The position numbers were made by a program, and so were the translations under genes. Of a stretch of DNA of 8,380 nucleotides, positions 1-8,380 are shown one piece after another (the first letter of the stretch is position 1; the number at the start of each line of letters is the position of its first letter). The notes below the pieces were generated by a model that saw only the letters and a program-made list of their open reading frames with translations, was not told where the DNA came from and did no database searches. Source of the DNA: a virus (taxonomy: Duplodnaviria; Heunggongvirae; Uroviricota; Caudoviricetes); IMG/VR virus record IMGVR_UViG_2684622669_000009, positions 1 to 8,380 of that record; one strand, given 5' to 3'.

Positions 1-232
1 CCAATTTATCCCTCAGGATCCTAAAGCGGTACTTTGGCGTCCAGACTATGGGATATTTGCAACGCCAATATACATGTGATGAACTTCTGTAAAGCCCCAT
101 GTCAGTTTGTTTCCTTTTACTTGTGGTGAGTAAGCAGAGATATTCCGACATGGGCATTCTTCAGGCTATAGCCTTACAGGATCAATCACCACCTCCCCAG
201 GAGGTGGTTTAGGGATAACAACAAAAAAACCC

Positions 233-256
233 GCAGTTACGCGGGCTTAGAGGTAC
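233..256 (-). terminator. Intrinsic (rho-independent) terminator downstream of the lysis cassette
   Basis: Stem cccgc (240-244) / gcggg (251-255) with a 6-nt loop; on the minus strand it is followed by a run of 7 T (plus-strand A-run 233-239). Lies about 165 nt downstream of the Rz stop. Confidence 0.6.
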
Positions 257-420
257 TTTACTGCTTTTACGTACAGGCTGTTGCCAGACGCGAAATCATT
301 CCCACTCAATTATTTACGACAACCATAACCAATTGAGTGATAACATTTTTCCAAAACCTCATTTTTCCCATACCGTTTTATATACCGTCACCGGAAATCA
401 GTACCATGAAAAATGCCATG

Positions 421-903
421 CTATCTGGTCAGGGTGTCGTACTGTTTTTCACAGACTCTTCCGGCTTCGGCTGCCCGGTCAGCATACTCTGCCAGTTGTC
501 TGTTTCTCTCGAGAGATTTGCTGAGCAAGTCGGCAAGCAAAACTCCGGTGTCTGCGGCTGACGCCCCAGCGCCGACAATGGCGTTATACTGCCTGAGCTG
601 CTCACGGATGGCAACGAGCTGTTGCTGCAACCGGCCAGCGCGAGCGGCAGCATCAAGAGCATCATTGCGCGCCTGGTCGATCCTTTGCTGAGCTTCACGT
701 TCATTGGTAGCTTTCTCCTGTTCGTAGTGCTGACGAACTATCTCATCTTCGGCTTTGCGATCTTCCTTCGCCTGCGCATACCCGGCTTCGTACTGACGAC
801 TGCCGTATGCATTCCAGGCTACAACTCCTGATATGACCAGAACAGCAAGCATCGCCATGATAACCAACTGTTTACTGTATGCTTTTGCGAATGCCCAGAT
901 CAT
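421..903 (-). CDS. Rz: Rz-like i-spanin (inner-membrane spanin subunit)
   Basis: 160 aa; N-terminal transmembrane segment (LVIMAMLAVLVISGVVAW) followed by a long charged, Q/A/E/R-rich predicted coiled coil. Its ATG overlaps the endolysin stop as ATGA (900-903), indicating translational coupling; it contains the embedded Rz1 frame. Confidence 0.85.
   Translation of the reverse strand: MIWAFAKAYSKQLVIMAMLAVLVISGVVAWNAYGSRQYEAGYAQAKEDRKAEDEIVRQHYEQEKATNEREAQQRIDQARNDALDAAARAGRLQQQLVAIREQLRQYNAIVGAGASAADTGVLLADLLSKSLERNRQLAEYADRAAEAGRVCEKQYDTLTR
429..704 (-). CDS. Rz1: Rz1-like o-spanin (outer-membrane lipoprotein), embedded out of frame inside Rz
   Basis: 91-aa ORF lying wholly inside the Rz ORF in another frame. 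N-terminus MNVKLSKGSTRR + hydrophobic AMMLLMLPLA + lipobox LAG|C is a typical lipoprotein signal peptide; the mature part is short and proline-rich as in lambda Rz1. AGGAGA Shine-Dalgarno about 9 nt upstream of the ATG at 704. Start could instead be the internal Met at 665 or 662. Confidence 0.75.
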   Translation of the reverse strand: MNVKLSKGSTRRAMMLLMLPLALAGCSNSSLPSVSSSGSITPLSALGRQPQTPEFCLPTCSANLSRETDNWQSMLTGQPKPEESVKNSTTP

Positions 904-1529
904 ACCGCCAGCACCTTACTGGCAGTGATGTACCGCGCGCGTCTGTCGTCGATTCCGTTCCTGCCACCATTGATAATCAGAGTTACACGTACAATATCTC
1001 CGGTATACTTCATGCAGCCTTTACTGGAGAAGAACCACGCCGCGCTACGAGCCGCGTATTCGTCCTGCGCCAGCAGTTCAGGACTCTCCAGCAGGTCAAC
1101 TTTCAGGCCGTTTCCGCAGTCACGATAGTTATTCAAACCGGTAATCTGGATAAGTCCGCGTCCTCGGTAATTCCAGCCATCACCAGGGGCATTGTTCCCC
1201 ATGCGTTTGCTGTACACCAGATTTGCAATCGCGCGCTGGCGCTCTAGTGGCAATGGTGGTTCACCAGCACGGCGACCCAGTGCATTAGCCTGTCCTTGGG
1301 TGAGACGCCCAGCCCGAACGAAGTTAGCCAGTCCGGTGACGCTGTAGTTGAAATTCTCCTGCAACCGGGTGAGGCCACCAGACTCATGCCCGACCTGAGC
1401 AATAAACATTGCTTGATCTTCGGCTTTGCTGATACCAAACTCTTTCATCGCAGAAGTTATATGCGAGAACCAGCGTGCAGCAAGCACCTCGCTAATACCA
1501 GCAGCTAGCTGGAATTGTTTAATCTCCAT
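900..1529 (-). CDS. Phage endolysin, glycoside hydrolase family 19 (chitinase-like lysozyme)
   Basis: 209 aa carrying the motifs I associate with GH19 phage endolysins: AQVGHESGG, PGDGWNYRGRGLIQITGLNNY, SPELLAQ, SAAWFF, INGGRNGIDDRR. Sits between holin-like genes and Rz/Rz1. Confidence 0.88.
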   Translation of the reverse strand: MEIKQFQLAAGISEVLAARWFSHITSAMKEFGISKAEDQAMFIAQVGHESGGLTRLQENFNYSVTGLANFVRAGRLTQGQANALGRRAGEPPLPLERQRAIANLVYSKRMGNNAPGDGWNYRGRGLIQITGLNNYRDCGNGLKVDLLESPELLAQDEYAARSAAWFFSSKGCMKYTGDIVRVTLIINGGRNGIDDRRARYITASKVLAV

Positions 1530-1830
1530 GTTTAAATCTCGTTATTTTGAAAATCTGAACGACGTTACCGCGCGTTTTAATAACCGCAGCAAGCATGACA
1601 GCGTTGATAATGACCTCAGATAAATCCACAGCCATTGGCGTGCGTAACCAGATTGCATAAACAACACGAACTGGAATACTGGCCGCAGCAACAATCAGGA
1701 AATAAGCAATCCACCCACCCCATCTTCGGTGTTGGGATCCGTTACGCTGGAAAGTGACAACGCGAATTGCTATGCCAGTACAAATAACCGCATTGGTGAT
1801 CAGCAAAAAAAGCTCATGAGTTACCATCAT
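1519..1830 (-). CDS. Holin-like small membrane protein (holin or antiholin) of the lysis cassette
   Basis: 103 aa with 2-3 predicted TM helices and a charged C-terminal tail (KTRGNVVQIFKITRFKHGD). GGAG-type Shine-Dalgarno upstream of the ATG at 1830. Overlaps the endolysin start by 11 nt and the upstream membrane-protein gene by 17 nt. Function is from position and topology, not recognised homology. Confidence 0.6.
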   Translation of the reverse strand: MMVTHELFLLITNAVICTGIAIRVVTFQRNGSQHRRWGGWIAYFLIVAAASIPVRVVYAIWLRTPMAVDLSEVIINAVMLAAVIKTRGNVVQIFKITRFKHGD

Positions 1831-2218
1831 CTTTTCTCCCCGGAATTAACTCGCGTGGATTATCTGAACGGTGATAGAGCCATATACCAATACGCACAGC
1901 GACAATTGCTGATACAAATGCACCGGCAGAAAAGACGACTCCTTTTTCGAATGATTCCTGCGTGATTGTTGGAATCAGGCTGGCTATGCCGATAAGAATT
2001 AATGCTGCTGGCTTGTAGAAAAGAAGACCACATAGAAAACTTAGTATCGATAAAAGAACACGACGACGAACAGGATACTCTACCGCTGAGGTAACAAAAA
2101 TTACCGCGCCCGCTAGTGCACCTAAAGCAACTTCTGGCGGCACACCAGCGACCACAGACATTAGCGCGCTCATGCTAAGCCCCTGATTCAGCGACCCTGT
2201 AGTTAATGTGTGCGACAT
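1814..2218 (-). CDS. Holin-like membrane protein (3 predicted TM helices), first gene of the lysis cassette
   Basis: About 134 aa from the ATG at 2216-2218 (GGTGG Shine-Dalgarno 5 nt upstream); the ORF track's start at 2227 is a GTG with no Shine-Dalgarno. Three hydrophobic segments and a charged C-terminus (YHRSDNPRELIPGRKDDGNS). Assigned by position and topology only. Confidence 0.6.
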   Translation of the reverse strand: MSHTLTTGSLNQGLSMSALMSVVAGVPPEVALGALAGAVIFVTSAVEYPVRRRVLLSILSFLCGLLFYKPAALILIGIASLIPTITQESFEKGVVFSAGAFVSAIVAVRIGIWLYHRSDNPRELIPGRKDDGNS

Positions 2219-2317
2219 AGAGACCACCGTTTAATGTGCATAAAGTCACCCCCCTTAGATGATGAGTCCATCATACACAATAAACCATATTGGGTTCAAA
2301 GAATCATAAAAATGCTC

Positions 2318-2347
2318 TTAACGAAATTACCTTAAAGGTGATATGAT
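2318..2347 (+). promoter_or_regulatory. Candidate sigma70 promoter for the acyltransferase gene
   Basis: TTAACG (2318-2323), 18-nt spacer, TATGAT (2342-2347), about 30 nt upstream of the ATG at 2378, in the AT-rich divergent intergenic region. Motif-level guess only. Confidence 0.3.
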
Positions 2348-2377
2348 AAATAAAATGATTCATGGTAGATATATAAA

Positions 2378-3472
2378 ATGTTCATTACTAACACTGATGT
2401 TTTTACCTTTCTTTTCTTAGCTATATCATTAATAGCGGCTATTTTTGTCAAAAAAATAATCCCATCAACCGTAATAAATGTACATAATGACACAACCTTA
2501 GAAGGTTTAAGAGGCATTGCATGCTTATTTGTATTTATAAATCATGCTTCATATAGCATTCATCACATCGGAATACAAAATTGGCAAATGATGGGTGATT
2601 CACCATATACCGGGAGAATGGGAGCTTTCGGAGTGGAGATATTTTTCTGTTTGACAGGGTACTTGTTTGCAAAAAAGATTCGCAAAGGAGATATAGACTT
2701 GTCATTTTTTGAAAAAAGAATCAGGAGGCTTGCTCCTGCATATATATTTGTATCATTTGTAGTTTTTATATATTTCGTATTTATGAACTATAATGTTATT
2801 CGTGGTTACTACGATATATCGGCTTTGATCCAACAAATTTTCGGATTCGGTTTCTTTGGGAATAGAATATCTGTAAACGGTATGGTGGATACATCATTGA
2901 ATGCTGTTGTGTGGACGCTTCCTTATGAATGGAAGTTTTATGCAATAGTCCCCTTCGTAGCGGCTATTTATAAGCTAAGAAGGCCTATCCCTCTACTTAT
3001 CGCATTTGGAGTAGCGACTGTTTGCATTGACTATTGGTCGAAAATGTTCTTGTGGGGGTTTTTCGTAACCGGATTCATTGCTTCATTCGTTGGTATTTTA
3101 GAAAATAGATATCTTAAGTATATCTCATATTACATAATGCTATTCCTATTTGCATATGCATTTAAGGGATCATTTGATATTCATGGTTTCCAAATGTTTG
3201 TCGTAGTATCTTTATTTTTCATAACATTTATTGCGGCAAGACCTAAGATATTCTCCATAGGAGTATTTGTTTACCTTGGAACTATAAGCTATAGCATTTA
3301 TCTACTACATCAGGTAGTTACAACGGTTTTCATGAAATTAATCTCTGGGGTAATCGATCTACTTACCATAAATATGTATGAATACTTAATGGTCTGCATC
3401 ATACCAATATCACTTACAATTTACTTATCATCTATTAGTTACAATAAAATAGAGAAAAAATTCATCAGATAA
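2378..3472 (+). CDS. Acyltransferase family 3 integral membrane protein; probable O-antigen / surface-polysaccharide O-acetyltransferase (lysogenic conversion gene)
   Basis: 364 aa, hydrophobic throughout (about 10 TM helices), with AT3-type motifs LEGLRGIACLFVFINH, FGVEIFFCLTGYL and SYSIYLLHQ. Markedly AT-rich compared with its neighbours (estimated by eye at roughly 30% GC). Opposite strand to the flanking phage genes. Confidence 0.85.
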   Translation: MFITNTDVFTFLFLAISLIAAIFVKKIIPSTVINVHNDTTLEGLRGIACLFVFINHASYSIHHIGIQNWQMMGDSPYTGRMGAFGVEIFFCLTGYLFAKKIRKGDIDLSFFEKRIRRLAPAYIFVSFVVFIYFVFMNYNVIRGYYDISALIQQIFGFGFFGNRISVNGMVDTSLNAVVWTLPYEWKFYAIVPFVAAIYKLRRPIPLLIAFGVATVCIDYWSKMFLWGFFVTGFIASFVGILENRYLKYISYYIMLFLFAYAFKGSFDIHGFQMFVVVSLFFITFIAARPKIFSIGVFVYLGTISYSIYLLHQVVTTVFMKLISGVIDLLTINMYEYLMVCIIPISLTIYLSSISYNKIEKKFIR

Positions 3473-3475
3473 ATA

Positions 3476-3507
3476 ATATTGGAGGGTTACTACCTCCAAT
3501 ATGTTTT
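3476..3507. terminator. Bidirectional terminator hairpin between the convergent acyltransferase and tailspike genes
   Basis: Perfect 10-bp stem atattggagg (3476-3485) / cctccaatat (3493-3502) with a 7-nt loop, followed by GTTTT on the plus strand and an A/T-rich stretch on the minus strand. Sits 4 nt after the acyltransferase stop and 13 nt after the tailspike stop. Confidence 0.7.
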
Positions 3508-3519
3508 GACTGCACTGTT

Positions 3520-5742
3520 TCAGCCGTTCGAGATTTTACCAGATATCCTAAATCTTAGCGCTCCAGATTTGATGTAATTGTATGTGAGGAAAGTTCTTGT
3601 GCCATCAGATGCCACGGCATAGAACTGAATCTTTGTGAAGTCTGTAGCTCCTGTAGGAATAAATCCAATAACATCGACAGTTCCTGCTGGTAATGCATTC
3701 CCAAGCGCTGTCCTGACCTCTATCTCGCATCCTGCCCCTGGATAAAAACCAAGCCCTCTGGGAAGGGTGATTGTGATATTTCCTGTACCGCCTGTTGTTC
3801 CTGTAACATTTATACTTACATGCAAATCAACATGCTCACCATCCCTCCTTGCAGTATATGTGCCAGTTTGTGTTACAGCTGTAGTATCATCGAAACCGAT
3901 ACTTCCAGTTAAGGCCGCATTAACCTGTAGTTCAGATTTAAATCCGCATATATTATTTCTCCACGGAATCGTTGGTTTATCACCATCCCATGTGATGGGT
4001 TGCGATGAAAAATGAGTTGTTTTATTACCAAGAAATTTTAAATTAAACAAGTTGTTATTTATATCGCCAACAAGATAAGCAGCATAAAAAGGTAGCCCTC
4101 CAGTAACAACCTGTTCATTGTGAGAAGTTACAACAGCATCGTGTATAGTATTGCTGGTTGAGCGAATCACAAACCCATAACCACCATTATCCATCGTTGC
4201 GCCAGAATCTGGATCTAATTTTGCAACGCTATCAGCATATGGTCTATAAAGTGTATGCCCACCAGATATCAATTCAAAACCGATTAACATTTGCCTGTTA
4301 GGATATAAATCATCTGATGTTTTAGGATGTCCCCATGGATGAGGATCTACAAGAGTATTCGATCCGGTACCAGAAATGCGAATGCCTATTGGATAATCTA
4401 TCGTTATAGGGTTTACAAAATGGCTATCACCAGTGCGAATCCACAATCCAACTACCGACTTGCTTTCCCATTTCATAATTCCAAAGCAACTATGCATAAT
4501 TGCGATTTCATAACCTATTGAAGGAATACCACCAATATCTGCCCCGCCTCTTAGCATCCCCCACGTTTCCATCTGACCTACCGTAACACCAGCTATATGC
4601 GTCATCAGAACACCAATTGCATCAACATGTTGGTAATATACGGTTCCCCAGTCAGTATTCTGCGTATGTCGTATGTGAATTCGTGGAATATAGGTACGCT
4701 TATCGCTATATGTGGTCGTTGGTGACATAATGTGATAGACAGCCTTATAGCTATTTCCTGCGGCATCTACTGTTTGGAAATCACCAGTTGGATCTGCCCA
4801 TATAACACCAGTCTGCAATACGCTAAGCCCTGCCAGATGCTTAATTGATGATTTAACCCGATAGACATTTGGCAGCCAAACTGTTTTGTTATTCTCATAA
4901 GCATAGTCATACGCATCCTGAATCATCACAGCCCAGTCAGTTTCTCCTGGATGATTTGCATAGAACTGCTCAGGTGTAACAAACTGCGAACGCGCAAATA
5001 GATCGTTTAAATCTGTTTGCACTGTACCGCTGGACATCGTGCCTATCAAACAACTTCCTGTTGGCTTCGCTAGTTCTATGAGAACATCAGCAGCAGAACC
5101 AGATTCTGGTAGTAGCATGATTGGGTTACCATTATCATCCATGCCTACAATTTTGTTTTTTCTCAACTCAACTGGTGGTAACTGCGGGATCATTTCTGCC
5201 GTGCGTAACGTTCTGCTAAAGAGAAGATCCGTATGCGAAGTGTTTCCAGCGCTAAGTGAGTCAGCATAATTCTTTGTCGCTGCATCCTGAGGGCGAATAG
5301 GGTCTCTTAAGTTTCTAATGTAGTTGTTTAGTGCGTCGTAATAATTAGCCACGAACGACGGCTTTCGCAGAACAAGGCTAAACCAACTACGCACTTGCTG
5401 GATCAGCATCGTCAGCTTATCGAACGCGTCTTCATGCACCTCAGCGAAAAACTTTCCCTGATTGCGCAGATCAGTTTCCTGCGTAACCGGTAGCTCTCGT
5501 GATATAGAAATCTGATAACCGTTAGCCAACGCCTTCGACAGAATTACATTACCGCCGTTATATCCTCCAGCTCCGGTAACTGTATAATCAGTATCAAGAG
5601 TCAGCACAGCAATATTTTCGTTAAGGTCAGAGACCTGAACAACCAAGTCGGATTTTTTGAAAATACGGAAGGTATACGGAAATGATGTCGTAACACCGTT
5701 ACCGGTGTATTCGTTGTGGTCAACTTCGGTTGAGACCGTCAT
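3520..5742 (-). CDS. Tailspike / tail fiber protein with putative polysaccharide depolymerase (beta-helix) receptor-binding domain
   Basis: 740 aa. The N-terminal ~150 aa (YTGNGVTTSFPYTFRIFKKSDLVV...LTLDTDYTV) follow the pattern of the T7 gp17 N-terminal particle-attachment domain. A downstream segment TPEQFYANHPGETDWAVMIQDAYDYAYENNKTVWLPNVYRV matches the signature at the start of pectate-lyase-type beta-helix tailspikes. Gly/Thr/Ser-rich C-terminus. GGAGA Shine-Dalgarno 6 nt before the ATG at 5742. Confidence 0.88.
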   Translation of the reverse strand: MTVSTEVDHNEYTGNGVTTSFPYTFRIFKKSDLVVQVSDLNENIAVLTLDTDYTVTGAGGYNGGNVILSKALANGYQISISRELPVTQETDLRNQGKFFAEVHEDAFDKLTMLIQQVRSWFSLVLRKPSFVANYYDALNNYIRNLRDPIRPQDAATKNYADSLSAGNTSHTDLLFSRTLRTAEMIPQLPPVELRKNKIVGMDDNGNPIMLLPESGSAADVLIELAKPTGSCLIGTMSSGTVQTDLNDLFARSQFVTPEQFYANHPGETDWAVMIQDAYDYAYENNKTVWLPNVYRVKSSIKHLAGLSVLQTGVIWADPTGDFQTVDAAGNSYKAVYHIMSPTTTYSDKRTYIPRIHIRHTQNTDWGTVYYQHVDAIGVLMTHIAGVTVGQMETWGMLRGGADIGGIPSIGYEIAIMHSCFGIMKWESKSVVGLWIRTGDSHFVNPITIDYPIGIRISGTGSNTLVDPHPWGHPKTSDDLYPNRQMLIGFELISGGHTLYRPYADSVAKLDPDSGATMDNGGYGFVIRSTSNTIHDAVVTSHNEQVVTGGLPFYAAYLVGDINNNLFNLKFLGNKTTHFSSQPITWDGDKPTIPWRNNICGFKSELQVNAALTGSIGFDDTTAVTQTGTYTARRDGEHVDLHVSINVTGTTGGTGNITITLPRGLGFYPGAGCEIEVRTALGNALPAGTVDVIGFIPTGATDFTKIQFYAVASDGTRTFLTYNYIKSGALRFRISGKISNG

Positions 5743-5898
5743 GTTAAATCTCCAGATAGTCGCAGCACCCGTTGCGCCGCATATCCGGTTATTCTATTAC
5801 CTGAAAAACCATATATGGATAGGTAACCCATAAATACGAACAGATATTACCTTTCAGGTAATTTGCAAAACGTGCTGGATAGCAAACAAATTATTTGA

Positions 5899-5918
5899 TA
5901 CTGTATATTCATACAGTT
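5899..5918 (+). promoter_or_regulatory. LexA (SOS) box overlapping the putative promoter of the 85-aa gene / Bro-N operon
   Basis: TACTGTATATTCATACAGTT matches the E. coli LexA consensus TACTGTATATATATACAGTA at 17 of 20 positions, with the CTGT-N8-ACAG core intact. It lies 20 nt upstream of the ATG at 5938, with a possible -10 TATATT (5904-5909) inside the box. Confidence 0.6.
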
Positions 5919-5937
5919 ATTGCATGGAGAAGATAAG

Positions 5938-6195
5938 ATGCAGCAGTATCACTATCCACTGGAAGACGGATTTACCGAAAGGATTCACACGCCGGGAGGC
6001 GTCAGGTCACTGGTGGAGGGATCGCACTTGATGAAATTACTCCGGGATCTCGATAAGGATGGATTTAATGTCGATGGCCCACTTACCGAACTGACTGCAC
6101 TGATTAACTACGTCACCAGCTCACAGATGTCTATGCAGGAGCTGCAAACACATCTCGACTATTGTGCCGAACAATTACGAAAGCAAACCAGATAA
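5938..6195 (+). CDS. Small protein (85 aa) paralogous to the C-terminal domain of the downstream Bro-N antirepressor; candidate SOS-induced antirepressor or modulator
   Basis: ATG at 5938 preceded by GGAGAAG. Aligns over its whole length with the last ~78 residues of the Bro-N protein (shared YxxPLxxG[FY]xxxIH[ST]PxGV...SxLMxLL...DGxxVxG...ELT...QTHxxY). The ORF-track start at 5920 is a TTG; the ATG with a Shine-Dalgarno is preferred. Confidence 0.7.
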   Translation: MQQYHYPLEDGFTERIHTPGGVRSLVEGSHLMKLLRDLDKDGFNVDGPLTELTALINYVTSSQMSMQELQTHLDYCAEQLRKQTR

Positions 6196-6333
6196 GGTTT
6201 GCAATTACCAAGCGGAGTGCTTATATTTACCTTTGCGGTAAATTTACATCGCACTCCTCTTGTGCCATAGTGATCAGGCACTGGCAAAATCCAGTGCCGG
6301 GATTGGCGTCCCGGATTACTAAAAGGCGCATTC

Positions 6334-6353
6334 ACCGCGCAAGCGGTTTTTTT
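6334..6353 (+). terminator. Candidate intrinsic terminator / attenuator between the 85-aa gene and the Bro-N gene
   Basis: 5-bp stem accgc / gcggt with a GCAA tetraloop, followed by a run of 7 T (6347-6353). The short stem suggests partial termination. Confidence 0.45.
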
Positions 6354-6510
6354 ATGCGTATAGCACGGTCACATTCGTATTATGGTGGGCTGTGTGGGGG
6401 CACCGAAAGGTGCGCCGGGTCCTTTTAGCCGGTTACGCCAACCCTGCACAGTTCACCACCAACCGATTGGCGTCGGTAGTGGTGATTAACCAGACTAAAA
6501 GGTAACCACT

Positions 6511-7197
6511 ATGACTGCTAACGTAACCCCATCTGTTTTTCATTTTGAATCAGAAGCAACCATTCGAGCCATTGTTATTGATGGAAATCCTTGGTTTGTT
6601 GCCAAAGACGTTATTAAAGCTCTTCAACTGACAAACCCCACTATGTCAATAAAATCTCTTGATGATGATGAAAGGGCTAAATTTAACTTAGGCCGTCAAG
6701 GCGAAACCAATATTATCAACGAGTCAGGCCTCTACACACTGATCCTCCGCTGCCGCGATGCGGTGACACCAGGCACTATCCCCTACCGCTTTCGTAAATG
6801 GGTTACAGGTGAGGTTCTTCCTCAGATCCGCCGCACCGGAAGTTACATTAAAAACTCGCTCCCGCAGGAAGAACGCATAAAGATGGTTGCCGACCAGGTA
6901 GCCAACGCCACAGCATCAGCAGTGATGCAGGCAATGAAGATAGAGAACAAAACCTACAGCGCCCCACTGAAGCCCGGCTACCGCAGTCTGATTCATTCTC
7001 CGTCTGGTGTTCTCGGCTTGACGGAGAACTCACTGCTGATGAATCTGCTGAACCGGTTACAGGAAGACGGGCACGACGTATCGGGCGCGGCGGCGGAGCT
7101 GACCACCATGTTCTGCTACATCGTCGGTGTGAGCAAATGCCTGCGTGATATCCAGACACACGCGGAGTACATCAACGACAAAGCAGGGTTCTTCTGA
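6511..7197 (+). CDS. Bro-N domain phage antirepressor-like protein
   Basis: 228 aa. N-terminal ~110 aa fit the Bro-N pattern (FHFESEATIRAIVIDGNPWFVAKDVIKALQL...ESGLYTLILRCRD). The C-terminal ~78 aa are paralogous to the upstream 85-aa protein. Confidence 0.85.
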   Translation: MTANVTPSVFHFESEATIRAIVIDGNPWFVAKDVIKALQLTNPTMSIKSLDDDERAKFNLGRQGETNIINESGLYTLILRCRDAVTPGTIPYRFRKWVTGEVLPQIRRTGSYIKNSLPQEERIKMVADQVANATASAVMQAMKIENKTYSAPLKPGYRSLIHSPSGVLGLTENSLLMNLLNRLQEDGHDVSGAAAELTTMFCYIVGVSKCLRDIQTHAEYINDKAGFF

Positions 7198-7204
7198 CGG
7201 CGGC

Positions 7205-7223
7205 GGCACAGGGATGTGCCTTT
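7205..7223 (+). terminator. Weak candidate terminator hairpin after the Bro-N gene
   Basis: Stem ggcaca (7205-7210) / tgtgcc (7215-7220) with a GGGA loop, followed by only TTT then AAA. A weak terminator at best. Confidence 0.3.
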
Positions 7224-7313
7224 AAATAATTCTGTACAGATTGCAGGTGAATAGCTTACTATTACCTCACGGGTGATCCATAGCGATTAGGCACCGATAC
7301 AGGAGGAGCCCAC

Positions 7314-7346
7314 ATGAGAAAATTTGACGAGTACGAAGGCGTTTAA
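7314..7346 (+). CDS. Mini-ORF (10 codons, MRKFDEYEGV) with a strong Shine-Dalgarno; candidate leader peptide
   Basis: AGGAGG (7301-7306) lies 7 nt upstream of the ATG at 7314; stop TAA at 7344-7346. An in-frame stop just upstream rules out a longer ORF. A hairpin follows 18 nt downstream. Tiny ORFs are often chance, so confidence is low. Confidence 0.25.
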   Translation: MRKFDEYEGV

Positions 7347-7364
7347 CATTCGGATAGTTTAATG

Positions 7365-7387
7365 ACGGGGCCATTAGGCCCCGTTTT
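7365..7387 (+). terminator. GC-rich hairpin (terminator or attenuator) immediately upstream of the 179-aa gene
   Basis: Perfect 8-bp stem acggggcc (7365-7372) / ggccccgt (7377-7384) with a 4-nt loop, followed by a short T-run (TTT then CAT). The downstream gene's Shine-Dalgarno starts only 8 nt after the hairpin, so the hairpin must lie in that gene's 5' leader unless the gene is read through from upstream. Confidence 0.45.
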
Positions 7388-7405
7388 CATGTCTGGAGAC
7401 AGTTT

Positions 7406-7945
7406 GTGTTAAGTGAAGAAATGCAATTTGCCATGGCTGTAGCTCAAATCGTAAGTGCAGTCGCGGTTTCGCTTGGCTTGTTCATAGCTATCGCTACTAT
7501 TATTTATAATGTAAATACAGCGAGAAAAGTACACACTTCAGTATTCCTTGGTGAAAGCAGGTTTGATGTAGATTATAAGAAAGGCCTATCTACTATGCGC
7601 CGCATTCACGAATCGAACAAATCATTCCGCTCTTATATGTATCCAAGCAATGGGCAGGCTGATCTTACGGATGAAGAAAAGACAGAGAAGAGAGAAATAA
7701 TTTACTGTCTAGGTTTCTACGAACGCATGGCTGTGAGCGTGAAGCGGAAAACTTATGATGAGACCATGATTAAGGAAGTATTTTACAGCTCCGTTGTAAA
7801 TAACTATCAGATTGCGCTACCTCTTATACAAGCCATTAGAGAAAAAGAAAACATAAACACATATTTTAAAGAATATGAATGGTTGGCCACACGATGGAAG
7901 GATTGCCCATTGAAGGATAAATCCCCGTGGTACAAGTTTTGGTAA
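7406..7945 (+). CDS. Membrane-anchored protein of unknown function (179 aa); candidate superinfection-exclusion / abortive-infection effector
   Basis: GTG start at 7406 with GGAGA 6 nt upstream (alternative ATG at 7421). One N-terminal TM helix (FAMAVAQIVSAVAVSLGLFIAIATIIYNV) then a ~140-aa charged soluble domain rich in K/E/Y. Lower GC than its neighbours (estimated by eye at roughly 40%). Followed directly by a strong terminator. I recognise no family for it. Confidence 0.7.
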   Translation: MLSEEMQFAMAVAQIVSAVAVSLGLFIAIATIIYNVNTARKVHTSVFLGESRFDVDYKKGLSTMRRIHESNKSFRSYMYPSNGQADLTDEEKTEKREIIYCLGFYERMAVSVKRKTYDETMIKEVFYSSVVNNYQIALPLIQAIREKENINTYFKEYEWLATRWKDCPLKDKSPWYKFW

Positions 7946-7966
7946 GCCCGCGCTGCGGGCTTTTTT
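7946..7966 (+). terminator. Intrinsic terminator after the 179-aa gene
   Basis: Stem gcccgc (7946-7951) / gcgggc (7955-7960) with a 3-nt loop, followed by a run of 6 T (7961-7966). Begins one nucleotide after the TAA stop. Confidence 0.75.
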
Positions 7967-8038
7967 GTGGACGAAACAAAAGTCAGTGCTACACTCATTG
8001 ACGCCACATTGAGGTGGCTTATAGATGGAAATTTCACA

Positions 8039-8200
8039 ATGAAAAAAGCATTTGCTGCACTGTTCGTTTTGTTGTCTCTGGTAGCTTCAACTCAGGCTTT
8101 TGCCGGTCGTTGTCAGCACGACAGCGATACTGCTGCTGACGGCTCCCGCTGCGGTGGGCGTTCTGCGGACTCCCGCCCGGGCGGCGGTGGCATTCGTTAA
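8039..8200 (+). CDS. Possible small secreted peptide (53 aa) with an N-terminal signal peptide
   Basis: ATG at 8039. MKKAFAALFVLLSLVASTQAFA looks like a Sec signal peptide with an AFA cleavage motif; the predicted mature part (~31 aa, Gly/Ser/Arg-rich, two Cys) is low-complexity. No clear Shine-Dalgarno, GC-rich region with ORFs in several frames, and a 5-codon upstream ORF (8025-8042) overlaps the start as ATGA. May be spurious. Confidence 0.3.
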   Translation: MKKAFAALFVLLSLVASTQAFAGRCQHDSDTAADGSRCGGRSADSRPGGGGIR

Positions 8201-8222
8201 AAACAAGGCCGCGAAAGCGGCC
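8197..8222 (-). terminator. Intrinsic terminator on the minus strand, downstream of the partial minus-strand gene
   Basis: Perfect 6-bp stem ggccgc (8207-8212) / gcggcc (8217-8222) with a 4-nt loop; on the minus strand it is followed by TTGTTTTTAA (plus 8197-8206). Sits 10 nt after the candidate minus-strand stop at 8232-8234. Confidence 0.6.
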
Positions 8223-8231
8223 TGTGACATG

Positions 8232-8380
8232 TCACGTCCCTTTTCTGAATGATATCCATTCGAAAAATGATGACATTCCACCGCAGACAACAGCAAAGAT
8301 GATCCCACCAAAGAAGAGAATGCCAGCCTGCCACCACTCCCACCGCCATACATCCACAGCGCCAACCATACCAACAATCG
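8232..8380 (-). CDS. 3' end of a minus-strand gene for a hydrophobic, Trp-rich small or membrane protein; partial, continues beyond the window
   Basis: Hand translation of the minus strand in the frame that stops at 8232-8234 gives ...IVGMVGAVDVWRWEWWQAGILFFGGIIFAVVCGGMSSFFEWISFRKGT*, which ends cleanly just before the minus-strand terminator. The overlapping ORF-track frame (8087..8377) would run through that hairpin and is low-complexity. A complete 46-aa protein from the ATG at 8367-8369 is also possible. Confidence 0.3.
   Translation of the reverse strand, partial: IVGMVGAVDVWRWEWWQAGILFFGGIIFAVVCGGMSSFFEWISFRKGT

Follow-up and report, generated by a model that had tools for sequence, protein, structure and literature searches.

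The tailspike gene and its setting

The subject of this analysis is a long minus-strand gene in the window, by which we mean the whole 8,380-nucleotide stretch of DNA that was analysed (positions 1 to 8,380 of the IMG/VR virus record IMGVR_UViG_2684622669_000009). Megablast against phage genomes identifies the window as an epsilon15/phiV10-like (genus Uetakevirus) prophage of Escherichia coli, with about 46-49% of it matching phiV10, TL-2011b, HEMP4, phiv142-3 and vB_EcoP_ZX5 at 89-92%. We think it likely that the gene encodes the tailspike, or receptor-binding protein, of this prophage and that the protein is modular, consisting of the four parts listed in Table 1 and belonging in part to an exchanged cassette.

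Table 1. Features of the window, from left to right; neighbouring genes were assigned by a Pfam scan of the window proteins
Feature	Position	Strand	Basis or remarks
Rz (DUF2514)	421-903	minus	Pfam
Embedded lipoprotein open reading frame (ORF)	429-704	minus	ORF list
GH19 endolysin	900-1529	minus	Pfam
Two holin-family membrane proteins	1519-1830 and 1814-2227	minus	Pfam
Exchanged cassette relative to phiV10: acyltransferase and tailspike from about residue 220 to its end	2348-5083	.	blastn
AT3-family integral-membrane acyltransferase, 364 residues; candidate O-antigen acylating (seroconversion) gene	2378-3472	plus	Pfam
Hairpin resembling a bidirectional terminator, in the gap that separates the convergent genes for tailspike and acyltransferase	3476-3502	.	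10-bp stem, 7-nt loop, T-rich tails on both strands
Tailspike gene, 740 residues plus stop codon (3520-3522)	3520-5742	minus	ORF, identity to P0001, PHROG 1640
C-terminal beta-sandwich domain, residues 610-740	3523-3915	minus	Model strands, Det7 gp208 profile match
Helical cap and right-handed parallel beta-helix, residues 246-609; putative polysaccharide-binding/depolymerase domain	3916-5007	minus	
Helical neck/linker, residues 131-245, holding the recombination junctions and the junction motif ELAKPTGSCLIGT (residues 223-235)	5008-5352	minus	
Virion-anchoring N-terminal domain of epsilon15 gp20 type, residues 1-130 (beta-sandwich and first helix)	5353-5742	minus	Identity to epsilon15, phiV10 and Dpo31; hhalign
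epsilon15-gp19-like small ORF	about 5938-6195	plus	
Bro-N antirepressor-like gene	6511-7197	plus	Pfam
DUF4760 gene	7406-7945	plus	Pfam

The tailspike frame opens with ATG, preceded by GGAG 8 nt on its 5' side, and the ORF list gives exactly the coordinates and length of the original prediction. An identical protein (P0001, labelled 'hypothetical protein') is encoded in at least four E. coli assemblies, from which we take the gene to be real and conserved, and a fifth assembly holds an 88%-identical copy. P0001 and the related P0002 (Table 2) are carried by GCA_019368345.1, GCA_040721795.1, GCA_020416765.1, GCA_053671075.1 and GCA_047444455.1, and a P22-type carrier is GCF_059719415.1. The protein matches PHROG 1640 ('tail protein') with an E-value of 1.6e-152.

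The genes of the window stand in the same order as in the annotated records of phiV10, TL-2011b and epsilon15, and the order is therefore canonical for the lineage. In epsilon15, gp19 and an operator region are followed by tailspike gp20, a terminator, convergent O-antigen conversion genes, gp23, holin, endolysin, Rz/Rz1 and attP; the window repeats this identically from the gp19-like ORF through tailspike, terminator, convergent conversion gene, membrane protein, holin and endolysin to Rz/Rz1. The tailspike occupies its canonical position at the prophage end, with the gp19-like/antirepressor module on one side and the conversion and lysis genes on the other, in eight related E. coli loci as well. 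At the place of the hairpin, epsilon15 has an annotated terminator. The original prediction was right about the acyltransferase, the lysis genes and the Bro-N module, but it had described a lambdoid late operon of unusual order in which the acyltransferase followed the tailspike in one leftward unit. The lambdoid description was dropped after comparison with epsilon15 and phiV10, the phage being epsilon15-like. The acyltransferase gene, for its part, is convergent with the tailspike gene and lies beyond a bidirectional terminator, and the two are not co-transcribed.

The N-terminal anchor

The conserved N-terminal anchor of the lineage, some 220 residues long, is present in the window tailspike. 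Residues 1-219 are 76-84% identical to their counterparts in phiV10 (82%), TL-2011b and other E. coli Uetakevirus-type prophage tailspikes, all carrying unrelated C-termini. Over residues 1-130 identity is 89% to gp20 of the Salmonella phage epsilon15 and 89-92% across epsilon15 and phiV10. Identity to gp20 is about 64% over residues 1-320, but beyond about residue 320 the receptor-binding parts are unrelated in sequence. A HMMER search of the whole library with residues 1-165 retrieved 29,619 representatives at E ≤ 1e-3; the best 150 of them each fall in a 50%-identity cluster of their own and range in length from 175 to 979 residues, with anchors that are largely at least 78% identical. One anchor therefore serves very many different receptor modules.

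The only solved structure with sequence similarity to the anchor is that of Dpo31 from Cobetia phage Carin-1 (PDB 28lx; E = 9e-27, anchor residues 1-128, Dpo31 residues 1-131), whose domain D1 is a beta-sandwich (residues 8-87) at the virion base, as seen by cryo-electron microscopy (PMC13317679). Judged by sequence, the anchor is homologous to this domain. In the neck, residues 135-237 align at E = 3e-10 with residues 145-248 of 9m4d, the depolymerase of Klebsiella KN1, a stretch that comes directly after the T7 gp17-type anchor of that protein (residues 24-172). The N-terminal beta-sandwich (about residues 8-100) and the helical neck (to about residue 245) would together dock a presumably trimeric spike onto the tail.

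The original prediction had likened the N-terminus to the T7 tail-fibre domain, which is acceptable in the sense of remote homology but not of family membership. The Pfam family Phage_T7_tail (PF03906) scores 16.5 bits (E = 0.0071) over residues 11-56 only, missing its gathering threshold of 25.2 bits, and no match to it is found when residues 1-130 are scanned alone. BLASTP aligns residues 12-53 with residues 11-50 of T7 gp17 at E = 0.79, phmmer against the PDB gives no cross-match between anchor and gp17 in either direction, and hhalign of a shallow anchor profile against gp17 returns a probability of 1%. In a Smith-Waterman comparison with shuffling, 29 of 1000 shuffles equalled or exceeded the observed score. 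Among 14 diverse anchors, taken from BPP-1, BcepC6B, Pelagibacter, Vibrio, Xanthomonas and other phages, three match PF03906 when scanned singly (best E = 6e-5), and the profile of all 14 finds T7 gp17 chains in the PDB only at E-values of 0.26-0.76. However, hhalign of that profile against nine T7-type anchors gives a co-linear alignment of 87 columns with a probability of 90.6% and an E-value of 1.3e-6, in which residues 8-102 of the anchor correspond to residues 7-98 of gp17; the register is the same against a single-sequence T7 target (E = 0.0078). We accept from these comparisons that the anchor is probably a remote homologue, at the superfamily level, of the T7 gp17 N-terminal domain (PF03906; PDB 7boz, 7ey9, 8e4g). 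The two share a co-linear, remote beta-sandwich match and the role of attaching a trimeric fibre or spike to a podovirus tail. They differ in that the anchor falls below the Pfam threshold and is without significance in phmmer or BLASTP, its closest solved relative being Dpo31 D1 instead.

The receptor module, its exchange and the adjoining acyltransferase

A monomer model of residues 200-740, built with AlphaFold2 (AF2) on 33 family members, has a mean predicted local distance difference test (pLDDT) score of 82.8, with values mostly of 86-96 through the central region and lower ones in the last rungs. Its elements are a helical cap, short strands in a long run, a linker of low confidence at about residues 600-609 and a C-terminal beta-sandwich (residues 610-740) consisting mostly of beta strands with pLDDT of about 70-92. 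The run of strands has the right-handed parallel beta-helix of pectin-lyase-fold tailspike depolymerases. The peptide TPEQFYANHPGETDWAVMIQDAYDYAYENNKTVWLPNVYRV, quoted in the original prediction, is at residues 256-296 (4855-4977). Structure comparison of the C-terminal part finds, with scores in brackets, the pectin-lyase-like spike of Geobacillus virus E2 (7chu; 25.8), CBA120 TSP2 (6w4q; 25.0), an alginate epimerase/lyase (8ja4; 24.8), K5 lyase (2x3h; 22.5) and several polygalacturonases (about 21). The top Foldseek matches are the Det7 gp208, HK620, phi92 gp150, Sf6 and P22 tailspikes, and in BFVD viral 'pectate lyase superfamily' and tailspike models come out on top. By sequence, the family profile matches the C-terminal residues 434-542 of the Det7 gp208 tailspike (6f7k) at E = 6e-9. 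The pectate-lyase-like beta-helix, which the original prediction had expected a model of these residues to reveal, is borne out at the level of the fold; 'pectate lyase' is here the name of a fold and not of an activity. C-terminal beta-sandwich domains of other tailspikes contribute to trimer assembly or receptor binding.

The limits of the module can be read from DNA comparisons. With blastn, phiV10 covers only 294-2347 and 5084-7207, and the breaks at 2347/2348 and 5083/5084 therefore delimit a replaced cassette that consists of the tailspike from about residue 220 and the convergent AT3 acyltransferase. On both sides of this block the phiV10 backbone is 85-87% identical. TL-2011b covers 293-2290 and then 5261 onward, so that within the tailspike gene its homology ends at about residue 160 and that of phiV10 at about residue 220. 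The G+C content is 33% in the AT3 gene and 42% in the C-terminal part of the tailspike, against 49% in the flanks and backbone. For neither the beta-helix part nor the acyltransferase is there a significant match in phiV10, a phage of E. coli O157, and since both have been replaced the receptor of the window tailspike is not expected to be O157.

The same beta-helix and C-terminal module is found on quite different anchors. In P22-like prophage tailspikes it is 74-85% identical, with homology setting in at residue 223 within the junction motif, and is joined to an entirely different anchor, the P22 head-binding domain (Head_binding, PF09008). On the Tail_spike_N (PF18668) anchor of an uncultured siphovirus-like contig the identity is 68-71%, and in the likewise Tail_spike_N-anchored proteins of Kuttervirus phages 241, pSC20, AV101, A221 and UAB_1 it is 35-39%. 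Kuttervirus tailspikes (Vi1/CBA120/Det7-like, including the phage 241 tail protein, Det7 gp208 (6f7k) and CBA120 TSP2 (6w4q/5w6p)) differ from the window protein in their Tail_spike_N attachment and in forming the branched multi-spike assemblies of myoviruses, and their solved structures have only 13-16% sequence identity to its beta-helix. The cassette is rare, its full form being absent from all of 5,426 complete E. coli genomes, which yielded one P22-type partial match (72% nucleotide identity) and weak AT3 matches. The breakpoints, together with the presence of the module on P22-type and Tail_spike_N anchors, support the earlier suggestion that the receptor-binding part was swapped by recombination. 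This is the classical horizontal swapping of tailspike receptor modules, and the title of PDB entry 2v5i speaks of 'a podoviral tailspike in a myovirus'. In the present case recombination within the neck would have placed the low-GC cassette, tailspike from about residue 220 plus convergent AT3, in a conserved backbone.

Other enterobacterial tailspikes bind and cleave the host O-antigen or surface polysaccharide. The cap and beta-helix of the window protein (about residues 250-600) may act likewise, binding and most likely cleaving the host O-antigen or another surface polysaccharide, and such cleavage would let the virion reach the outer membrane. The target might instead be a capsule or exopolysaccharide (K antigen, colanic acid), attacked possibly by a lyase rather than a hydrolase, with the AT3 protein modifying either a different glycan or that same capsule. 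This seems to us unlikely, given that the closest sequence relatives are Kuttervirus, P22-like and epsilon15-like tailspikes, which typically use O-antigen, and that an AT3 gene beside the tailspike in temperate enterobacterial phages is the classic layout for O-antigen seroconversion. The P22-like prophage tailspikes, too, adjoin an AT3 acyltransferase and an integrase, as in the Sf6-type oac arrangement.

Several results weigh against the account of the protein given here. As regards the anchor, the pairwise and single-profile T7 tests are each weak and only the two-profile comparison is convincing. An AF2 model of residues 1-250, built on 38 close homologues, has a pLDDT of 41.6 and is unusable, leaving the T7-like fold to be argued from profile comparison only. 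As regards the beta-helix, no sequence match in Pfam, NCBIfam or the PDB covers residues 250-610 or thereabouts. PF12708, PF13229 and PF05048 find no match on residues 200-740, and only one of the 33 family members matches PF12708 (E = 1.2e-4). Because the beta-helix is covered by no match to a family or solved structure, its activity and chemistry, hydrolase or lyase, cannot be inferred from sequence. Any catalytic residues (D439, D504, E412, H468) are guessed from conservation alone. Finally, P22-type prophages with a 76-79% identical beta-helix adjoin an unrelated AT3 (21%).

The beta-helix family is small, a word-indexed search with residues 241-740 giving only about 29 clusters at 90% identity. 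Invariant or nearly so across it are D269, E412, D439, Y450, H468, W470, Y502, D504 and K508, which we regard as candidate residues of the groove. With these candidates resting on conservation and no recognisable catalytic motif or Pfam glycosidase/lyase signature, the beta-helix could be a non-catalytic adhesin that binds the receptor, its depolymerase activity having been lost or never present. We hold this to be very improbable: D439, D504, E412, H468, W470 and Y450 are (near-)invariant in a family whose members diverge to 24-40% identity, as is typical of an active-site groove, and nearly all of the structurally closest tailspikes are enzymes. Binding with probable cleavage is the reading that we prefer.

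The acyltransferase matches Acyl_transf_3 (PF01757) as a whole protein (E = 2.2e-28, residues 41-350) and PHROG 3333, O-acetyltransferase, at E = 9e-41. It always adjoins this tailspike in the E. coli loci with an identical or 88%-identical copy. Among the Uetakevirus-type relatives (Table 2) the anchor is near-constant while the AT3 identity broadly falls with that of the beta-helix, although the ranking is not strict, P0013 and TL-2011b being the exceptions. This co-variation would fit a functionally matched pair of AT3 and beta-helix exchanged together; it would fit plain physical linkage too.

Table 2. Identity of related tailspikes and acyltransferases to the window proteins
Relative	Anchor (residues 1-219)	Beta-helix and C-terminal domain (residues 240-740)	AT3
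P0002 (Uetakevirus type)	83.6%	90.6%	86.5%
P0008 (Uetakevirus type)	79.0%	37.6%	51.2%
P0011 (Uetakevirus type)	76.3%	36.2%	41.5% (truncated, 91 residues)
P0018 (Uetakevirus type)	79.9%	24.2%	41.1%
P0013 (Uetakevirus type)	80.4%	26.3% (partial)	none
phiV10	82.2%	none	none
TL-2011b	78.1%	none	29.5% over 156 residues (E = 0.004)
P22-type prophages (L012, L035)	no match	76-79%	about 21%, unrelated

There is precedent for such a match. The Oac acyltransferase of phiV10 acetylates the O157 receptor and prevents infection, and that of Sf6 blocks the Sf6 endorhamnosidase (PMC9558356, PMC11854483). In phiV10 the AT3 gene is convergent to that for the tailspike (tail fiber p25), as in the window; Oac, which modifies the receptor O-antigen and gives immunity, is of the same AT3 family as the window gene. 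In a lysogen, the window AT3 would probably acylate the same polysaccharide that the tailspike recognises, and may in this way block the adsorption of the same or related phages, much as phiV10 Oac and Sf6 Oac do.

Alternatively, tailspike and acyltransferase could be functionally unrelated, their adjacency and co-variation following from linkage in the standard moron slot of the lineage, the gap between tailspike and lysis genes. The pairing of the same beta-helix with an unrelated AT3 in P22-type prophages leaves room for this, and the DNA homology to the P22-type copy is confined to 3591-4989, inside the tailspike gene. In the same slot, moreover, epsilon15 carries different conversion genes (an O-antigen polymerase and an inhibitor, where the window has an AT3 acyltransferase), and the AT3 gene of TL-2011b has the other orientation. 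Mere linkage is nevertheless possible rather than probable in our estimation, in view of the graded co-variation over a near-constant anchor, the independent recruitment of an AT3 beside the same beta-helix in two phage lineages and the experimental precedents of phiV10 and Sf6. The idea in the original prediction that the specificity of the tailspike matches the adjacent acyltransferase is hence plausible and mildly supported by the identities within Uetakevirus and by those precedents; the AT3 beside the same beta-helix in P22-type prophages, however, is unrelated. Joint transfer of acyltransferase and beta-helix to the P22-type prophages was considered and is ruled out by the low AT3 identity (only about 21%) and by the DNA homology, which stops inside the tailspike gene.

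Among the complete E. coli genomes, the AT3 gene closest to that of the window, with 68.7% nucleotide identity along part of its length, is in strain GDSC2BY4G (L036, 8956-11923). It is again convergent to a tail fiber/spike gene, here in a TipJ-type siphovirus-like prophage, and the pairing of AT3 and tailspike therefore recurs across very different phage types.

Flanking regions and significance

Two operator-like palindromes, TTACCT-N18-AGGTAA (5797-5826) and ATTACCT-N3-AGGTAAT (5846-5862), are found in the intergenic region from which the tailspike gene and the gp19-like ORF diverge, and in the epsilon15 record a repressor-binding site is annotated in the equivalent gap. At 5899-5918 there is a LexA/SOS-box-like palindrome, TACTGTATATTCATACAGTT, with one mismatch to TACTGTATATNNATACAGTA (0.01 expected by chance). 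The probable ATG (5938) of the gp19-like ORF, which precedes the Bro-N gene, follows about 20 nt downstream, and the palindrome suggests that expression of the antirepressor module may be under SOS control. The ORF list starts the gp19-like frame at a TTG (5920-6195, 91 residues), whereas gene calls in four related loci give 85 residues, corresponding to the ATG at 5938 and a GGAG-containing ribosome-binding site. The protein matches PHROG 450, of unknown function, and its C-terminal half weakly resembles the C-termini of anti-repressors; its C-terminal motif is found again where the Bro-N protein ends (compare '...LLRDLDKDGFNVDGPLTELTALINYV' with '...LLNRLQEDGHDVSGAAAELTTMFCYI').

On the left, the ORF embedded in another frame within the Rz gene bears a lipoprotein signal (…LALAGCSNSS…); it is the Rz1 o-spanin, in keeping with the annotation of phiV10 and epsilon15. 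Left of 293/294 the window (1-293) is without homology to the DNA of phiV10 or TL-2011b, and in E. coli contigs the next genes beyond that side are yfgI/yfgH/yfgG-like genes, a MASE1-EAL gene, ppx and ppk. The end of phage homology and the adjoining host-type genes place the junction of prophage and host near 294; for a related phage, integration at the 3' end of guaA has been reported.

On the right, a small ORF at 7967-8200 has a 53-residue form (MKKAFAALFVLLSLVASTQAFAG…) with a signal-peptide-like N-terminus. It is kept in relatives, being called at 53 residues in three related loci (L004-L006) and labelled 'putative transmembrane anchored protein' in TL-2011b. Just past the right end of the window, two E. 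coli assemblies with the identical tailspike (L004 and L005) have an insertion of an IS3-family element (HTH_Tnp_1 and rve; 6074-7302 in those loci) between the gene for an 824-residue virion protein and the DUF4760 region, and the prophage there may be defective.

The window gene is thus an ordinary mosaic tailspike; it adds a member to the modular enterobacterial tailspikes, a known class, and belongs to a known phage genus. Its mosaicism is of a known phage type and makes no new kind of system, and the current view of tailspike architecture and phage genome organisation is unchanged. The beta-helix family is without a Pfam model or a sequence-similar solved structure, yet its fold and context are standard. 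Of more interest, though doubtful, would be a module whose glycan specificity or cleavage chemistry is as yet uncharacterised, with two unrelated AT3s, one in Uetakevirus and one in P22-like phages, recruited convergently to mask the same receptor. If so, the two AT3s would be natural, convergent 'receptor-masking' partners of a single tailspike specificity, and could serve to find out at which O-antigen positions acylation is needed to block one defined enzyme. Practical value, in serotyping, reporter phages or depolymerase tools, would come only once the target polysaccharide is identified. The protein adds a receptor-binding module, and a fairly rare one, to those catalogued for enterobacterial tailspikes. 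It offers a clean worked example of the shuffling of anchor and receptor modules among podo-, myo- and P22-like phages, and of the exchange of a seroconversion gene jointly with a receptor module within one lineage.

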